This document shows, piece after piece, positions 22,324-29,445 of a stretch of DNA of 50,940 nucleotides. Under the pieces are notes generated by a model that worked only from the letters and a program-made list of their open reading frames with translations, had not been told where the DNA came from and did no database searches. The stretch is taken from contig CAZXBG010000006.1 of the NCBI GenBank assembly GCA_964638865.1, positions 1-50,940 on the forward strand, given 5' to 3'. Origin of the DNA: an uncultured Chitinophagales bacterium (GTDB taxonomy: Bacteria > Bacteroidota > Bacteroidia > Chitinophagales > BACL12). Position numbers and translations under genes: made by a program. Within the stretch, counting starts at the first letter, position 1. Each line of letters starts with the position of its first letter.

Positions 22324-24135
22324 TCAGGCCTTTGTAAGGATTGGCAAGGTAAATTTAAAATCACTTCCTTCCTTTTCATTTTGCTCCACCCAGATTTTTC
22401 CGCCGGCTTGCTCTACAATTTTTTTGCAAATAGCGAGACCTATTCCTGTTCCGGAATACTCATTTCTGGAATGTAAACGTTGAAATATCATAAATATTTT
22501 TTCTCTGAATTCCTCTGAGATGCCTATTCCATTATCAGAAATGATGAATTGATAATTTTTTCCGATAATAGAGAATAACAGGGTTATCTCCGGTTGATTA
22601 TGCACATTATATTTAATGGCATTGGAAAAGAGATTTTGAAAAAGTTGTATCATTTGAGTTTCGTCAGCAGTTATAGTTGGTAAATTAGGACAATTTATAA
22701 TCACATTTTTTTCATTAATCTGCGTATAAAGATTTGATATTACGGTATTTAATACGGAATTAAAATCAACAATTTCTTTTGGACGAACAAAATTTATTTC
22801 TGAAAGCGTAAGAAGATCACTGATCAAATTATGCATGGTTTGAGTGCCATTTGTGATAAAATCCATAAAATCAATCTCATCACTGCCCAACTTTTCTTTC
22901 AGACTTCTTTTTAACAAAGTAACATATGATGTTATCATACGGAGTGGCTCCCTTAAATCATGACTTGCAACATGCGCAAATTGTCTTAATTCGTCGTTTG
23001 AAATTTCAAGTTGATGCGCATATTTTTCAATTTGTTCATTTTTTTGCCGAAGCAATTGAGCTTCCCTTTCTTTTTTCTCTAACTCAAATTCATTTCTTGC
23101 TTTTGCGATTACAAAAGTTTTTTCATCGTTAAACACATCCTTTAATGTTTGCGCATATTTTTGTTTATATATAAAAGCATTTTTATAATCTTCAACAGCT
23201 GAATAAGCTTCTGATATTTGCTCATAAACATTCGATAATGACCTTGTTACGCCGAGTTGTAAGAATAATTCTTCTGCAGCAACAAAATATTTTATGGCTT
23301 CTTTAGGTTTGCCCATTATGGCATATGCCTCACCCATTTGGTTGCTGGTATGAGCGCGATTATAAATGCTGTTTATTTGTTCATCATATTCCTGTGCGCG
23401 ACTAAAGTATTTCAAGGCTATATCAAAATCATTAAGTTTTGTATAAACCAAACCCAGGTTCGCGCAATAGATGGAAAGAAAGGAAATAGAATTTTCTTTT
23501 TCGGCAAGTTCAAGTGCTTTTAATAAATAATTAAGTGCATTTTTATATTCACCTAACCTGAAATAAAAAACTGCATAAGAATTGTAACAATTCGCTACTC
23601 CGGAAAAATCCTCGATTTGTTCATATAAGCTTAATGCTTTGTTTAAATATTCTTCCTGCGCAAATCCGGTATCGGTAAAATTAAAGAGTATGAATACATT
23701 ATAATAAGCGTGCGCTATCCACTTTTTTTCGTAGTAATTTTTTTCAAGTTTTAATTCTAGTAATTTGATACACTCCAGATAATGTTTTTGAGATAAAACA
23801 TTATCGCCGGTAAAGTGATAATTTCTTCCCAGGTTCAAATGGTAATAAGGAGCATAATTTTTTTTGAATTCACCCTTTAAATATCCAAATGCAACATCAC
23901 AAAGTTTTATAGAATCGTAATAATTATTGTTTACCAAACATTCAAAAAGCGCTTTTTCCATCAATGCAAGTCCCTGATAATTACTGCTATTTATGCTTTT
24001 TGCCAGTTCAAGTGCTTGTCCGGAGAGGTCACCAATTTCTGAATTGCGTTTGGAAACCAGATCCCAAGAGGTATGCAGGAGCGTCTCTATCTTTTTTTCA
24101 ATTTCCCTCTTATGTTTGGTTTTATTTTCCGGCAT
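22324..24135 (-). CDS. Soluble TPR-repeat sensor histidine kinase
   Basis: TPR-like helices in the N-terminal region; H-box FAHVASHDLREPL; N-box QNLFSNAIKY; DNGIGI; FQRLH; GTGIGLAIC; no obvious TM segment. Confidence 0.9.
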   Translation of the reverse strand: MPENKTKHKREIEKKIETLLHTSWDLVSKRNSEIGDLSGQALELAKSINSSNYQGLALMEKALFECLVNNNYYDSIKLCDVAFGYLKGEFKKNYAPYYHLNLGRNYHFTGDNVLSQKHYLECIKLLELKLEKNYYEKKWIAHAYYNVFILFNFTDTGFAQEEYLNKALSLYEQIEDFSGVANCYNSYAVFYFRLGEYKNALNYLLKALELAEKENSISFLSIYCANLGLVYTKLNDFDIALKYFSRAQEYDEQINSIYNRAHTSNQMGEAYAIMGKPKEAIKYFVAAEELFLQLGVTRSLSNVYEQISEAYSAVEDYKNAFIYKQKYAQTLKDVFNDEKTFVIAKARNEFELEKKEREAQLLRQKNEQIEKYAHQLEISNDELRQFAHVASHDLREPLRMITSYVTLLKRSLKEKLGSDEIDFMDFITNGTQTMHNLISDLLTLSEINFVRPKEIVDFNSVLNTVISNLYTQINEKNVIINCPNLPTITADETQMIQLFQNLFSNAIKYNVHNQPEITLLFSIIGKNYQFIISDNGIGISEEFREKIFMIFQRLHSRNEYSGTGIGLAICKKIVEQAGGKIWVEQNEKEGSDFKFTLPILTKA

Positions 24136-24269: not shown

Positions 24270-26162
24270 ATGACTAAAGAAAAAGGAACCATTGCTGTTC
24301 AGACGGAAAATATCTTCCCTATTATTAAAAAGTTTTTATACAGTGATCATGAGATCTTTTTGCGCGAGTTAATCTCGAATGCAGTTGACGCCACTCAGAA
24401 ACTTAAAAAACTCAGCTCACTGGGGGAGGTAAGCGGTGAGATTGGCAGTACGATAATCGAAATTAAAATCGACAAGGAACAAAAAACCATTACCATTTCT
24501 GATAAAGGTATTGGAATGACTGCCGATGAGGTGAAAAAATATATCAATCAGATTGCCTTTTCTAGCGCCAGTGAATTTCTTGAAAAATATAATGGAGTAG
24601 AGGAGGGAAAAAGTATAATCGGCCATTTTGGACTCGGCTTTTACAGTGCATTCATGGTTGCCGATAAAGTGCAATTGCTGACAAGATCGGCAAAAGCTGA
24701 TGCGCAGGCAGTGCTTTGGGAATGTGATGGCAGCACCGAATTTACTTTGGAGGAATTCGAAAAGGAAGGCCGTGGAACGGATGTTATTCTATTTATCAAT
24801 GATGAAAATGAATCTTTTTTAGAAGAAAGTAAAATTGCAGGCCTACTGAATAAATATTGCAAATTTTTACCTGTTCCTATTCAATTTGGAGAAAAAGAAG
24901 AAACCATTACTGCAGAAGTGGAAACTGATACTGAAGATGCTGCAAAAACCACCGAAACAATAAAGGTTCCGAATATTATTAATAACACTGAACCTGCCTG
25001 GACCAAAAAACCGGCTGATCTTACAGATGAAGATTATAAAAAATTCTACGGTGAATTATATCCATATACCGAAGCGCCTTTATTCTGGATACATTTAAAT
25101 GTAGATTATCCTTTTAATCTTACAGGAATACTTTATTTCCCAAGAATTAAAAAGAGTTACGAGATACAAAAAAATAAAATTCAACTATATAGTAATCAGG
25201 TATTTGTTACTGATGAAGTAAAAGAAATTGTACCGGAATGGTTGACGTTATTGCACGGGGTAATTGATTCACCAGATATTCCGTTAAATGTATCGAGAAG
25301 TTATTTGCAGAGCGATCTGAATGTTAAAAAGATAAATGCTTATATCACAAAAAAGGTAGCCGATAAATTGGAAGAATTGTTTAAACAAGACAGAGCACAA
25401 TTTGAGGAGAAATGGGAAAATATCAATGTGATTATTAAATACGGAATGTTAAGTGATGAAAAATTCAGTGCACGTGCCGAGAAATTCTGTTTGCTGCAAA
25501 ATACGGAAAAGAAATATTTTACTTTTGATGAATACAGTGCGCATATCGAAGCAGGTCAAACTGATAAAAATGGTCAGAAAATTGCTTTGTATACAAATAA
25601 TACCATCGATCATAACGTATATGTTGATGCGGCAAAAAACAGAGGATACGATGTTTTGGAAGTAGATAATGTGATTGACAATCACTTTATTTCTCTCCTG
25701 GAACAAAAAATTGCTGGAGTTCAATTTAAACGGGTGGATGCCGATACCATTGATAAACTAATTGACAAGGATGAAAAGGTGGAATCTGTATTGTCGGAGG
25801 ATGAACAAAACGGTATCAAAGAATTGTTTGAAAAGGTAATAGATGCAAATGCCGGAACGGTTGTTATTAATCCACAATCGCCGAATGATAGCCCAGTTTC
25901 CATAACAAAACCCGAATTTATGCGCCGCATGAAAGAGATGAGCCATATGAACGGGATGGATTTTGCATCCATGATGCCTGATCAATACAACCTTGTAGTG
26001 AATACAAATCATCCTATCATCAATAAAATATTGAAGATGGAGGAAACGCAGCAACAAAATTCTGTTAAACAATTACACGATCTTGCCTTGTTATCGCAGG
26101 GTATTTTAAAGGGAAATGAATTAACAGAATTTGTAAAACGCAGTGTTGGTTTGATGGCTTAA
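24270..26162 (+). CDS. htpG: Molecular chaperone HtpG (Hsp90)
   Basis: LYSDHEIFLRELISNAVDA, DKGIGMT, IGHFGLGFYSAFMVA and DIPLNVSRSYLQ. Confidence 0.97.
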   Translation: MTKEKGTIAVQTENIFPIIKKFLYSDHEIFLRELISNAVDATQKLKKLSSLGEVSGEIGSTIIEIKIDKEQKTITISDKGIGMTADEVKKYINQIAFSSASEFLEKYNGVEEGKSIIGHFGLGFYSAFMVADKVQLLTRSAKADAQAVLWECDGSTEFTLEEFEKEGRGTDVILFINDENESFLEESKIAGLLNKYCKFLPVPIQFGEKEETITAEVETDTEDAAKTTETIKVPNIINNTEPAWTKKPADLTDEDYKKFYGELYPYTEAPLFWIHLNVDYPFNLTGILYFPRIKKSYEIQKNKIQLYSNQVFVTDEVKEIVPEWLTLLHGVIDSPDIPLNVSRSYLQSDLNVKKINAYITKKVADKLEELFKQDRAQFEEKWENINVIIKYGMLSDEKFSARAEKFCLLQNTEKKYFTFDEYSAHIEAGQTDKNGQKIALYTNNTIDHNVYVDAAKNRGYDVLEVDNVIDNHFISLLEQKIAGVQFKRVDADTIDKLIDKDEKVESVLSEDEQNGIKELFEKVIDANAGTVVINPQSPNDSPVSITKPEFMRRMKEMSHMNGMDFASMMPDQYNLVVNTNHPIINKILKMEETQQQNSVKQLHDLALLSQGILKGNELTEFVKRSVGLMA

Positions 26163-26193
26163 TTTGTATCTTGAGTTAAGTTGTCTATATTTG
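26163..26193 (+). promoter_or_regulatory. Full Bacteroidota housekeeping promoter (-33/-7) upstream of the lysA leader
   Basis: TTTG (26163-26166), a 19-nt spacer, then TATATTTG (26186-26193). Confidence 0.7.
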
Positions 26194-26203
26194 CATCAAC
26201 AAA

Positions 26204-26260
26204 ATGAACAACTGTAAACATAAATCTTCCAAACATTACCCACTTTTTGGTGAGTCGTGA
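26204..26260 (+). CDS. Putative lysA leader peptide MNNCKHKSSKHYPLFGES
   Basis: ATG after AAA just downstream of the promoter; Lys codons at positions 5, 7 and 10; TGA at 26258-26260; overlaps the alternative hairpins. Confidence 0.55.
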   Translation: MNNCKHKSSKHYPLFGES

Positions 26261-26284
26261 AGATTTTGTTGTAAAATAAATCCG

Positions 26285-26315
26285 AAGGCTTACCGTAAAT
26301 GGTAGGCTTTTTTTT
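26285..26315 (+). terminator. Intrinsic terminator in the lysA 5' leader (attenuator)
   Basis: aaggcttacc-gtaaat-ggtaggc running into T8, lying between the promoter and the lysA start. Confidence 0.75.
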
Positions 26316-26333
26316 ATGGCAAAAATGCAAATT

Positions 26334-27587
26334 ATGATTTTGAAAAACAATGACTACTATTCCGGTGATGTTCGTTTACTCGACATTACTGAAGAACACG
26401 GCACTCCGGTTTATGTGTATGACGCACAAATTATGACCTCACAATTCAATCGCCTGAAAAAGGCATTTGATAAGGTTGATATGAAAATTAAATACGCCTG
26501 TAAAGCATTAACAAATATTGCAGTTTTAAAACATTTCAAAACTCTGGGGTCCGATTTAGATGCAGTTTCTATTGAAGAAGTACAGCTCGGTTTGCATGCG
26601 GGATTTTCACCGGAACAAATTTTATTTACACCAAATTGTGTTTCTATTGAAGAAATAAAACTTGCAGTTGAATTAGGCGTAACAATTAATATTGATAATA
26701 TTTCTGTGTTGGAACAGTTTGGACATCTCTACGGAAATACTGTTCCGTGTTGCATCAGAATAAATCCGCATATTGAAGCAGGTGGACATCAGCATATTCA
26801 AACAGGACATATTGATAGTAAATTCGGAATTTCCGTTTATCAGATGCGACATGTACATCGGGTTGTTACTGCAAATAAAATGTTAATTATAGGATTGCAC
26901 ATGCATACCGGTTCAGATATTTTAGACAGCAATGTTTTTTTGCAGGGAGCTGAATTATTATTTGATGCTGCACAACAATTTCCTGATCTGCAATTTCTTG
27001 ATTTTGGAAGCGGATTTAAAGTGGGTTATAAAGACGAGGATGTTACTACTGATATTGAAGAATTGGGAAACACATTGTGCTCTCGATTTAATGCGTTTTG
27101 TGAAGAATATGATCGCAAACTGGAACTTTGGTTTGAACCCGGAAAATTTTTGGTAAGTGAAGCCGGGATACTATTGGTGAGGGTGAATGTTATTAAACCA
27201 ACAATGGCAACTGTTTTTGCCGGCGTTGACAGCGGACAAAATCATTTGATAAGACCGATGTTTTATGATGCATATCACGGCATAATAAATATTTCAAATC
27301 CAACAGGAACACAGAGAATTTACACTGTTGTAGGATATATTTGCGAAACGGATACACTAGCCCGCGACAGAAAAATAACGGAGGTTCATGAAGGCGATAT
27401 TCTCGCAATTAAAAATGCAGGTGCTTATGGATTTACTATGAGTAATAATTACAACAGCAGAATGCGGCCGCCGGAAGTGTTTATTTTAAATGGCAAAGCA
27501 CATCTTATCAGAAAAAGAGAAACGTTGGAAGATCTTTTAAAAAATCAGGTGGAAATAGAAACTGAAATTTCAGTCGGTATAAATTAA
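26334..27587 (+). CDS. lysA: Diaminopimelate decarboxylase
   Basis: GTPVYVYD, PLP lysine in YACKA, SKFG, HMHTGS, EPGKFLV, GYICETD and GAYGF...YNSRMRPPEV. Alternative in-frame ATGs at 26316 and 26325. Confidence 0.95.
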   Translation: MILKNNDYYSGDVRLLDITEEHGTPVYVYDAQIMTSQFNRLKKAFDKVDMKIKYACKALTNIAVLKHFKTLGSDLDAVSIEEVQLGLHAGFSPEQILFTPNCVSIEEIKLAVELGVTINIDNISVLEQFGHLYGNTVPCCIRINPHIEAGGHQHIQTGHIDSKFGISVYQMRHVHRVVTANKMLIIGLHMHTGSDILDSNVFLQGAELLFDAAQQFPDLQFLDFGSGFKVGYKDEDVTTDIEELGNTLCSRFNAFCEEYDRKLELWFEPGKFLVSEAGILLVRVNVIKPTMATVFAGVDSGQNHLIRPMFYDAYHGIINISNPTGTQRIYTVVGYICETDTLARDRKITEVHEGDILAIKNAGAYGFTMSNNYNSRMRPPEVFILNGKAHLIRKRETLEDLLKNQVEIETEISVGIN

Positions 27588-27675: not shown

Positions 27676-29445
27676 TCACAGCAACTTTAACCCAACAATC
27701 TTCAGTTGTTCATTATCCACTTCTGCAGGGGCATCCATCATGAGATCTCTTCCTGCATTATTTTTTGGAAAAGGAATTACATCGCGAATGGTTTCTCCTC
27801 CGCACATCAACATTACCCAGCGGTCGAAACCGAATGCGCATCCACCATGGGGAGGTGCTCCATATTGAAATGCGTTAACCATAAAACCGAAACGTTTTTC
27901 TTTTTCCTCTTCCGTAAAGCCGAGAATTTTAAATATTTTTTCCTGAAGATTTTTATCGTGTACGCGAATACTTCCGCTTAATATTTCATTTCCATTCATC
28001 ACAAGATCGTAACTCTGTGCGCGTACACGAAGCGGATCGCTATCCATATATTGAAAATCATCAGGATGTGGAGAACAAAATGGATGATGGGCAAAAATTG
28101 GTTCACCGGTATTTTCATCAGGCTCAAATAATGGCATATCAACAACCCAAAAAACACTCCAACTATTTTCAGTTATCCATTTTTCTCTTTTTGCCATTTC
28201 TAAACGCAATTCCCCTAAAACTTTTCTAGTTTTATTTGTTTTATCTCCCACAATTAAAATAAGATCTCCCTTTTCCGCATTCGTTTCACTTCCTATCGCA
28301 ATTAATTGTTCCGAAGAATAAAATTTATCTACCGACGATTTAATACTTCCATCCAGATTAAATCGGATATAAATTAATCCGCCGGCGCCGCGTTGCGGTG
28401 CTTTTACAAATTCGGTTAATTCGTCTATCTGTTTGCGTGTAAATTCGCTGCAACCTTTTGCATTTATACCTGCAACCAAACCTCCGGAATTAATTACGGT
28501 ATTGAAAACAGAAAAATCCGTTCCTCCCACTACACTATTCAGGTCCTGAATTTTACAACCAAAACGAAGATCCGGTTTATCGGAACCATAATATTTAATT
28601 GCATCCAAATAGGGCAATCTCTGAAAATCGGGTAAATCAATATTTTTTGTTTTTTTAAATACATGTTTCACCATTCCTTCAAACATAAACCATACATCTT
28701 CCTGATTCACAAAACTCATTTCACAGTCTATTTGCGTGAATTCCGGTTGACGGTCTCCCCGAAGATCCTCATCCCGAAAACACTTTGCAATCTGATAATA
28801 TCTGTCCATGCCCGCAACCATCAATAGCTGTTTTAAAATTTGCGGAGATTGTGGCAACGCATAAAATAAACCGGCTTGCATTCTACTCGGTACTAAAAAA
28901 TCTCTCGCACCTTCCGGCGTTGATTTAATTAAATTCGGAGTTTCAATTTCAACAAAACCTTCCGTATCCAAATATTCGCGCACTGCTCTCAGCATATTTG
29001 CACGCAGCATTAATCTTTTTTGCATTTGTGGACGGCGAAGGTCGAGATAACGGTATTTCATACGCAATTCTTCTCCGCCATCTGTATCATCATCCATAGT
29101 AAAAGGAGGAATTTCAGAGGCATTTAAAATGGTTAATGCATCTACGATAATTTCAATTTCGCCCGTTGGAATTTTCGAATTCTTATTGGAACGTTCTGCA
29201 ACTTTTCCGCTTATTTGTATCACCCATTCTCTGCCCAGTGTTCTCGCAGTATCGCACAAAGCCTCATCTATTTTCACCATGAAAACCAATTGAGTCAATC
29301 CATGACGGTCGCGCAGGTCGATAAATACCATCTCACCTAGATCTCTCTTAATATTTACCCAGCCGGCTAGTGTTACCGTTTTTCCGATGTCTGCTTTGTT
29401 TAATTCACCACAAGTGTTTGAGCGATAATAAGTTGAACTATGCAT
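27676..29445 (-). CDS. aspS: Aspartate--tRNA ligase
   Basis: FIDLRD, RYLDLRR, TPEGARDF, ALPQSPQ, CFRDED...RQPEFTQIDCE and GAPPHGG...GFDR. Confidence 0.97.
   Translation of the reverse strand: MHSSTYYRSNTCGELNKADIGKTVTLAGWVNIKRDLGEMVFIDLRDRHGLTQLVFMVKIDEALCDTARTLGREWVIQISGKVAERSNKNSKIPTGEIEIIVDALTILNASEIPPFTMDDDTDGGEELRMKYRYLDLRRPQMQKRLMLRANMLRAVREYLDTEGFVEIETPNLIKSTPEGARDFLVPSRMQAGLFYALPQSPQILKQLLMVAGMDRYYQIAKCFRDEDLRGDRQPEFTQIDCEMSFVNQEDVWFMFEGMVKHVFKKTKNIDLPDFQRLPYLDAIKYYGSDKPDLRFGCKIQDLNSVVGGTDFSVFNTVINSGGLVAGINAKGCSEFTRKQIDELTEFVKAPQRGAGGLIYIRFNLDGSIKSSVDKFYSSEQLIAIGSETNAEKGDLILIVGDKTNKTRKVLGELRLEMAKREKWITENSWSVFWVVDMPLFEPDENTGEPIFAHHPFCSPHPDDFQYMDSDPLRVRAQSYDLVMNGNEILSGSIRVHDKNLQEKIFKILGFTEEEKEKRFGFMVNAFQYGAPPHGGCAFGFDRWVMLMCGGETIRDVIPFPKNNAGRDLMMDAPAEVDNEQLKIVGLKLL

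Follow-up and report, generated by a model that had tools for sequence, protein, structure and literature searches.

A conserved leader before lysA in Chitinophagales is a candidate lysine-sensing leader-peptide attenuator

The htpG–lysA intergenic region

The leader of lysA, the gene for diaminopimelate decarboxylase, was analysed in a 50,940-nucleotide (nt) stretch of DNA from an uncultured Chitinophagales bacterium (contig CAZXBG010000006.1 of GenBank assembly GCA_964638865.1; the whole stretch is called the window). Here the 171-nt spacer between htpG and lysA holds a promoter, a short upstream open reading frame (uORF), a protector hairpin and an intrinsic terminator. Judged by its conservation among relatives, the leader is a real, conserved cis-regulatory element of lysA, and it is probably a ribosome-mediated (leader-peptide) transcription attenuator that would tie lysA to the supply of charged tRNA-Lys. 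The locus comprises the following features:

24270–26162: htpG (stop codon 26160–26162; Pfam HSP90)
26163–26166, plus strand: −33 promoter element TTTG, separated by a 19-nt spacer from the −7 box
26186–26193, plus strand: −7 promoter element TATATTTG, of the Bacteroidota type TAnnTTTG
26204–26260, plus strand: leader uORF of 18 codons and TGA (ATG at 26204, TGA at 26258–26260), with the product MNNCKHKSSKHYPLFGES
26216–26233, plus strand: regulatory core K-H-K-S-S-K, with Lys AAA codons at 26216–18, 26222–24 and 26231–33
26222–26244, plus strand: segment 1, the 5′ strand of protector hairpin P1 (AAAUCUUC at 26222–29 plus an inner strand)
26249–26266, plus strand: segment 2 (GGUGAGUC at 26249–56, which is the antiterminator 5′ strand, and GAAGAUUU at 26259–66)
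26284–26294, plus strand: segment 3, the terminator 5′ arm GAAGGCUUACC, partner of segment 2 or segment 4
26301–26311, plus strand: segment 4, the terminator 3′ arm, which merges into the T run 26308–26315 (eight T's)
26334–27587, plus strand: lysA, diaminopimelate decarboxylase (Pfam Orn_Arg_deC_N and Orn_DAP_Arg_deC)

The terminator stem joins 26284–26294 to 26301–26311 through 12 pairs and is followed by the T run, and the uORF stop codon falls within segment 2. The original prediction, made from this one sequence, had placed a promoter, a uORF with Lys codons and a terminator in the spacer, and each of these elements was found where it had been placed. The lysA product scores 395 bits against the NCBIfam lysA equivalog TIGR01048 (cut-off 297.9). 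Alignment with homologues supports the ATG at 26334 as its start; two further in-frame ATGs upstream (26316 and 26325) are absent from relatives and overlap the T run of the terminator, and the mechanically called open reading frame (ORF) is 6 codons longer.

Conservation of the uORF as coding sequence

A scripted survey took in 122 lysA loci for which 150 nt or more of upstream sequence was available, representing 107 distinct upstream regions. The leader lies upstream of lysA in 12 of the 107, in two Chitinophagales families, namely that of the window's genome (f1, 28 genomes) and a second one (f5, 28 genomes); L numbers denote lysA loci and their leaders. The organisms concerned are represented solely by metagenome-assembled genomes. 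All 12 leaders contain an ATG-initiated uORF of 16–19 codons, which starts 5–10 nt past a −7 box of the form TAnnTTT[G/A] (invariant columns T1, A2, T5, T6 and T7), and 8 of them have a TTG 18–20 nt before that box. Only the uORF frame is open in every leader, the remaining two being interrupted by stop codons in 10 and in 11 leaders. Four or five codons separate the ATG from the Lys-rich core, and differences in uORF length therefore come in whole codons.

This core, K-x-K-x-x-K-(K)-R, is all that the uORF peptides share, and their tails vary in sequence and length. With 3–4 Lys in 8 codons it is kept in 11 of the 12 leaders, L008 having 2; it reads KHKSSK[R/H/Q] in most of f1 and KNKQASKR, KHKSAKKR, KQKNSKKR or KHKNAKKR in diverged members. 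Lys codons have been exchanged synonymously (31 AAA versus 11 AAG over all uORFs). In f1 the core Lys codons are AAA with two exceptions, and in the f5-type leaders L101 and L136, where the flanking sequence is different, they are AAG in 7 of 8 cases. Apart from the codons of the Lys core, the GG in segment 2 and the general architecture, almost nothing is kept between the two families. Ten of the 12 leaders have Arg directly after the last Lys, encoded by CGC, CGT, CGA and CGG and never by AGA, although four neighbouring genes use AGA more often than any other Arg codon (30 of 82). In all 12, Ser or Ala precedes the last Lys or Lys pair. The Lys-rich uORF first proposed for the window is thus conserved, in frame, in all 12 related leaders.

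Mutually exclusive pairings in the leader RNA

The minimum free energy (MFE) fold of 26198–26330 consists of P1, formed by segments 1 and 2 (1:2), and the terminator (3:4), with −31.1 kcal/mol and z = −3.21 (1 of 200 shuffles as good); it reproduces the protector and terminator pairings of the original prediction. The piecewise energies of P1 (−14.1), the terminator (−13.5) and the antiterminator state (−14.2 kcal/mol) are similar. As had also been proposed, the pairings exclude one another by their coordinates, 26249–26256 being used in both 1:2 and 2:3 and 26287–26294 in both 2:3 and 3:4.

Covariation was assessed on a model-based structural alignment of 10 leaders, and compared with 500 shuffles and with partners slid along the sequence. 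In P1 and the terminator together, 85.9% of cells were paired, as against 36–56% with slid partners (91% in P1 helix 1, 80% in P1 helix 2 and 86% in terminator helix 3). Seven pairs had changed on both sides, and the covariation score of 0.241 (versus 0.161) was reached by none of the 500 shuffles, so that the stems are kept with compensatory changes of the kind that the original prediction called for. The antiterminator (GGUGAGUC with GGCUUACC) was 83.3% paired, versus 26–63% when slid, in an alignment whose rows L009 and L010 are off by one column.

Diverged leaders provided a further comparison through the energies of their own and exchanged duplexes. In L007 (arm GGCUUGCC, segment 2 GGCAGGG) the leader's own duplex has −13.8 kcal/mol, compared with −5.7 with most other f1 arms and −9.0 at most. 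L136 has a GC-rich arm, GGCCCGC, and a matching segment 2, which give −10.2 together and about −5 with most f1 arms, and L101 combines a new arm, GCCCCGC, with a complementary GGCGGG in segment 2. Segment 2 of L001–L005, conversely, gives −2.5 to −5.4 against the arms of L101 and L136, versus −8.2 to −11.2 against its own arms. These data suggest that the antiterminator strand changed together with the terminator arm in L007 and L136 and, less clearly, in L101.

To model a stalled ribosome, each leader was masked as far as 13 nt downstream of the first nucleotide in the last core Lys codon, and the 3′ terminator arm was left out as not yet transcribed. Folding then gave a 2:3 helix of 7–15 pairs in all 12 leaders, and a separate calculation gave such a helix in 11 of 11. 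The 2:3 duplex outperformed 95% or more of its dinucleotide shuffles in 9 of these 11 leaders. By the folding model the switch logic is kept in L136 although the shape of P1 differs, as a small hairpin directly after the Lys codons sequesters the same strand in place of the long P1.

Ribosome geometry and the distance to lysA

The antiterminator strand starts 13–18 nt past the last core Lys codon in all 12 leaders (13 being the minimum set by the mask), and the position of the uORF stop ranges from 10 nt inside that strand to 1 nt past its end, again in all 12. Given the generally known size of a ribosome footprint, a ribosome stalled on the Lys codons would therefore cover segment 1 and leave segment 2 free, and one that finishes the uORF would cover segment 2.

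The spacer between the terminator and lysA measures 17–25 nt at 9 of the 12 loci. This is too short for a −33/−7 promoter, so that expression of lysA at these nine would need read-through of the terminator; at L004 a −7-like box lies within the spacer. At the other three loci (L005, L006 and L008) the spacer is longer, at 72–131 nt, and no −7 box was seen in it. The insert in the L005 spacer contains two near-identical small palindromes, CCGGATG...CATCCGG, which are possibly a small repeat element. The gene upstream of the leader also differs between loci: it is htpG at 5, a divergent DUF7948 gene at 2 and, at one locus each, a divergent pyrG, a divergent unknown gene and a co-directional PNPOx-like gene.

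Distribution of the leader among lysA genes

A covariance model, R1, was built from the 10 f1 leaders, to the exclusion of L101 and L136, whose 3′ halves are misaligned by MAFFT. R1 matched 10 of the 28 f1 genomes at E <= 5.6e-15, and these are exactly the 10 that carry this lysA lineage. Nothing comparable was found with R1 in the other 18 f1 genomes, and the eleventh lysA-bearing genome of the family (G043) has a lysA that is 52% identical and has no leader. The two strongly diverged leaders lie outside f1. L101 precedes lysA in one metagenome contig, found among the best 80 of 567 metagenomic lysA relatives, and its closest genomic relative, L136, is in the f5 genome G251.

The leader was not found in the other 95 distinct lysA upstream regions of the survey. 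Nor did it turn up before the six other f5 lysA genes or before the 11 top-ranking lysA matches in other orders of the class. Some Chitinophagales lysA genes of other lineages (L011/L155, L060, L147 and L118) have short tandem repeats upstream instead, with units of CATTCAAC in L011 and of the CAAGCC type in L060. The genome of the window holds a single copy of the leader, with one strong covariance-model match (next E = 0.12 and 0.28) and one nhmmer match (6.7e-34; next E = 2).

Further candidates were rejected on inspection. Five matches of the survey script (L062, L095, L096, L111 and L158) were read from their sequence context as C-terminal ends of upstream genes and excluded from the count. 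A pattern scan of genome contigs gave 14 matches, six of which are known leaders; the other eight have neither an R1 match (E <= 1) nor a terminator hairpin, and seven of them sit in long open frames. Of the weak covariance-model matches in relatives and in the window's own genome (L038–L041 and L028; 26–36 bits), four are ordinary gene-end terminators and L041 is a different uORF leader. The latter represents a second conserved promoter-proximal uORF, MRNGLTKQIAFNYIR in the window's own genome (C105:8937, plus strand) and MRKSATKQIAFNNIR in a congener (L041; G007:C75:2233-2357, minus strand). It begins 7 nt past a TAnnTTTG box, is followed by a terminator-like hairpin and is not Lys-rich; the conserved gene after it encodes about 166 residues with the N-terminus MKRIIGLILKIIIY.

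When the leader label was mapped on a FastTree phylogeny of lysA proteins (116 distinct sequences), 2 changes were required, compared with a mean of 11.6 after shuffling (0 of 500 as low). The smallest clade with all 12 leader-bearing genes has 13 tips, the thirteenth being the long-branched L127. On this survey the leader is confined to one lysA lineage, and this clustering in one clade makes a single origin plausible. The gene itself is patchy, being present in 11 of 28 f1 and 7 of 28 f5 genomes, many of which are >95% complete, so that lysine auxotrophy may be common among these Chitinophagales. The occurrence of the leader-bearing lineage in both families suggests that the gene moved together with its regulator, and the lineage may have been transferred between the families along with the leader.

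Searches for other lysine sensors and leader peptides

The view that the leader is no lysine riboswitch, part of the original prediction, was borne out, as RF00168 matched neither the leader nor any part of the window's genome, while four control genomes were matched. At E <= 10 this family was absent from the Rfam matches on 25900–26600; all nine matches listed for the leader were far under threshold, the best having 20 bits against a threshold of 51.4. The Bacteroid-trp element (RF01692) was likewise not found in the window's genome but was matched in the control, Bacteroides thetaiotaomicron. A strict scan of the same genome, which demanded perfect stems and may have missed some cases, revealed no other convincing amino-acid leader peptide. 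One K-rich 'uORF', at C115:11719 before a 426-residue gene that may, from its N-terminus, be murF-like, was rejected, as it sits inside the 3′ end of the upstream 511-residue gene.

A lysine leader-peptide attenuator was not found in the full-text literature, in a search that left subscription journals, including the comparative attenuator surveys of 2004–2010, largely outside. A term search of PMC4833913 gave no mention of lysine.

A model for attenuation before lysA

These results can be combined in a model of ribosome-mediated attenuation. Transcription would start a few bases past the −7 box, and the uORF would therefore have little or no 5′ leader. When lysine is plentiful, the ribosome would reach the uORF stop in or beside segment 2 and cover that segment; the 3:4 terminator would form, and transcription would end at the T run 18 nt before lysA. 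When lysine is scarce, the ribosome would stall at the Lys codons within the K-x-K-x-x-K-(K)-R core and mask segment 1. Segment 2, left free 13–18 nt downstream, would then pair with the terminator 5′ arm ahead of synthesis of the 3′ arm, and RNA polymerase would continue into lysA. In the absence of translation P1 would hold segment 2, and the terminator would form. We infer translation of the uORF, stalling at its Lys codons and the response to lysine from the arrangement of the leader.

At the level of sequence, the features that define a leader-peptide attenuator are all present: a uORF, cognate codons, a terminator, exclusive pairings and a suitable geometry. The lysine leader-peptide attenuator of the original prediction is accordingly supported by the conserved uORF, the compensatory stems, the linkage to lysA and the short terminator–lysA spacers. 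Leader-peptide attenuation, the textbook case of the ribosome as a metabolite sensor, has been documented for Trp, His, Phe, Leu, Thr and the branched-chain amino acids; for lysine genes the control described is that of the L-box riboswitch or of regulatory proteins. With lysine as the sensed amino acid, the lysA leader is probably a new version of this known mechanism. LysA catalyses the sole lysine-specific step in bacteria that require diaminopimelate for the cell wall. If the model is correct, lysine would join the amino acids sensed by leader-peptide attenuation, and the mechanism would work in Chitinophagales, whose mRNAs lack a Shine-Dalgarno sequence, with a uORF almost at the 5′ end, which would imply that transcription and translation are tightly coupled from the very first codon. 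The leader would also offer a compact lysine-responsive part of about 115 nt.

Several observations weigh against this model. In f1 the covariation of the antiterminator is modest, because the terminator arm is nearly invariant: its 3 double-sided pair changes are matched by 220 of 500 shuffles and its score by 21 of 500. Segment 2 of L101 pairs equally well with the f1 arms, and the 2:3 duplex is no better than shuffles in L009 (0.106) and L101 (0.134). On the full-length RNA with a stalled ribosome the terminator is still the MFE state in 9 of 11 leaders, so that antitermination would have to be kinetic, as in classical systems. L136 lacks the long P1 and folds weakly (z = −1.96), and the T runs of L007 and L136 are interrupted. 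The uORFs carry only 2–4 Lys codons, and these are interspersed; the conserved CGN-encoded Arg after the last Lys points to a peptide or RNA constraint beyond the simple model. The phylogenetic range is narrow, with four genera in two families and one metagenome contig, and there is no in-genome precedent, as the strict scan gave no other leader-peptide attenuator and Bacteroid-trp was not found.

Lys clusters are also common in the window's genome, where 41 of 536 short ORFs before terminator-like hairpins have at least 3 Lys in 8 codons. This is in line with one caveat of the original prediction, that AAA codons are common in AT-rich DNA, and the Lys clustering in the single window sequence is within chance; its conservation across relatives exceeds chance. 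The other caveat, that two His codons are interleaved with the Lys codons, did not hold across relatives, in which the second His is replaced by Arg in 10 of the 12 leaders and by Gln in one, and the first by R, N or Q in 4 of the 12.

Alternative explanations

The uORF might control the terminator in response to a signal other than tRNA-Lys charging, either as an arrest peptide, K-H-K-x-S/A-K-(K)-R, that senses free lysine, diaminopimelate or another small molecule, or through general translation capacity. The structural evidence for a translation-coupled switch applies equally to this case, and non-Lys residues are kept through synonymous change (a CGN-encoded Arg in ten leaders, Ser or Ala in all 12). 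However, both the Ser codons and the C that follows the last Lys codon belong to paired regions of P1, so that RNA constraints can explain them. Furthermore, the core has just 7–8 residues, the peptide tail is not conserved, Lys is the sole residue type kept at several positions in both families, and the regulated gene makes lysine. A different signal therefore seems unlikely. More specifically, the basic core K-H-K-x-(S/A)-K-(K)-R, made from a leaderless mRNA, might work as an arrest peptide of very small size, detecting free lysine or diaminopimelate and setting termination before lysA. We consider this quite improbable; it is hinted at by the four CGN codons, to the exclusion of AGA, through which Arg is kept, and by the constant Ser or Ala before the last Lys or Lys pair, and if true it would represent a lysine counterpart of TnaC or SpeFL in Bacteroidota. 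Direct binding of the leader RNA by a metabolite, as in a small riboswitch, or by a regulatory protein, with P1 or the antiterminator being stabilised and the uORF incidental, would suit the common control of lysine genes by termination at the RNA level and the good conservation of P1 and the terminator in f1. Yet the leader matches neither the lysine riboswitch nor any other Rfam family, and the open frame and the positions of its start and stop are kept in all 12 leaders. Conservation between the families is mostly limited to the Lys codons, the segment 2 GG and the architecture (the long P1 being absent from L136), which is the pattern of a coding constraint and not of a ligand pocket, and makes an RNA-binding ligand a distinctly improbable regulator here.

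The remaining possibilities would remove lysA from control by the leader. It is very unlikely that the element is a stand-alone small gene, encoding a small RNA or an 18-residue basic peptide, with lysA expressed by constitutive leakage or from elsewhere and free of lysine control. The element does have a complete promoter and terminator, the terminator lies 72–131 nt from lysA at 3 of the 12 loci, and trans-acting attenuator RNAs and leader peptides have been described for trpL of Sinorhizobium. The element is found, however, solely upstream of this lysA lineage, with no second copy in the genome; the spacer leaves no space for a lysA promoter at nine loci, and the three long spacers show no −7 box; and the peptide tail varies freely, while the conserved 2:3 pairing would have no role in a plain terminator. 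Finally, the hairpin could be the terminator of htpG and the uORF a chance ORF in an AT-rich spacer, in keeping with a terminator 120 nt after htpG in the window and with the frequency of Lys-rich short ORFs in the genome. As the leader accompanies lysA even where the upstream gene is divergent (at least four loci) or a different one (others), the hairpin is more than the terminator of htpG. The uORF and its Lys codons are, moreover, conserved in 12 of 12 leaders, and this explanation is extremely improbable. The original prediction would have been abandoned had the hairpin only ended htpG with lysA transcribed from another promoter; the varied neighbours and the lack of promoter room at 9 of 12 loci speak against both.

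Comparison with known systems

The classical leader-peptide attenuators of enteric bacteria are trpL, hisL, thrL, leuL, pheL and the ilv leaders. In common with these, the lysA leader has a uORF with codons for the end product, exclusive 1:2, 2:3 and 3:4 pairings, a terminator just before the biosynthetic gene, and a stop placed so that a finishing ribosome would cover segment 2. It differs from them in its amino acid, lysine, in having its Lys codons interspersed (K-x-K-x-x-K) and not in a run, and in the position of the uORF 5–10 nt past a Bacteroidota −7 box, where it would be leaderless or nearly so and has no Shine-Dalgarno sequence. There is also no sequence similarity, the sole leader family among the Rfam matches listed being Phe_leader, with 18.3 bits against a threshold of 55 and through the terminator alone. 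Bacteroid-trp (RF01692), a predicted leader-peptide and terminator element before the Trp biosynthesis operon of Bacteroidetes, is from the same phylum and of the same kind as the lysA leader, and differs in amino acid and sequence.

The lysine riboswitch (L-box, RF00168) controls lysine biosynthesis genes, in some bacteria lysA, often by premature termination in the 5′ leader. Unlike the proposed lysA attenuator, it does not require translation, as its aptamer of some 180 nt binds lysine directly. The arrest peptides TnaC and SpeFL act through a specific nascent sequence together with a free ligand, and through Rho-dependent termination. They share with the lysA leader a short leader peptide that governs, or in the latter case would govern, downstream transcription termination; by contrast, the lysA leader has an intrinsic terminator with an alternative hairpin, and just its Lys codons are conserved in both families. 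In mycobacteria, leaderless polycysteine uORFs before biosynthetic genes have been proposed to sense the amino acid by ribosome stalling (bioRxiv 10.1101/834739). As described there, they resemble the lysA uORF in being leaderless, rich in the codons of one amino acid and located before biosynthetic genes, and differ from it in belonging to Actinobacteria and in the amino acid, cysteine.

Neighbouring genes and an antisense ORF

Upstream of htpG lies a gene for a TPR-containing histidine kinase (22324–24135, minus strand). On the other side aspS (27676–29445, minus strand) is convergent with lysA, which is therefore monocistronic. An antisense ORF of 63 residues (26159–26350, minus strand, TTG start) spans the whole leader and was rejected as a gene: the antisense strand of the leader is stop-free in the closest relatives and broken in L008–L010, where the stop-free stretch is only 22–33 residues, and the ORF is probably a by-product of composition.

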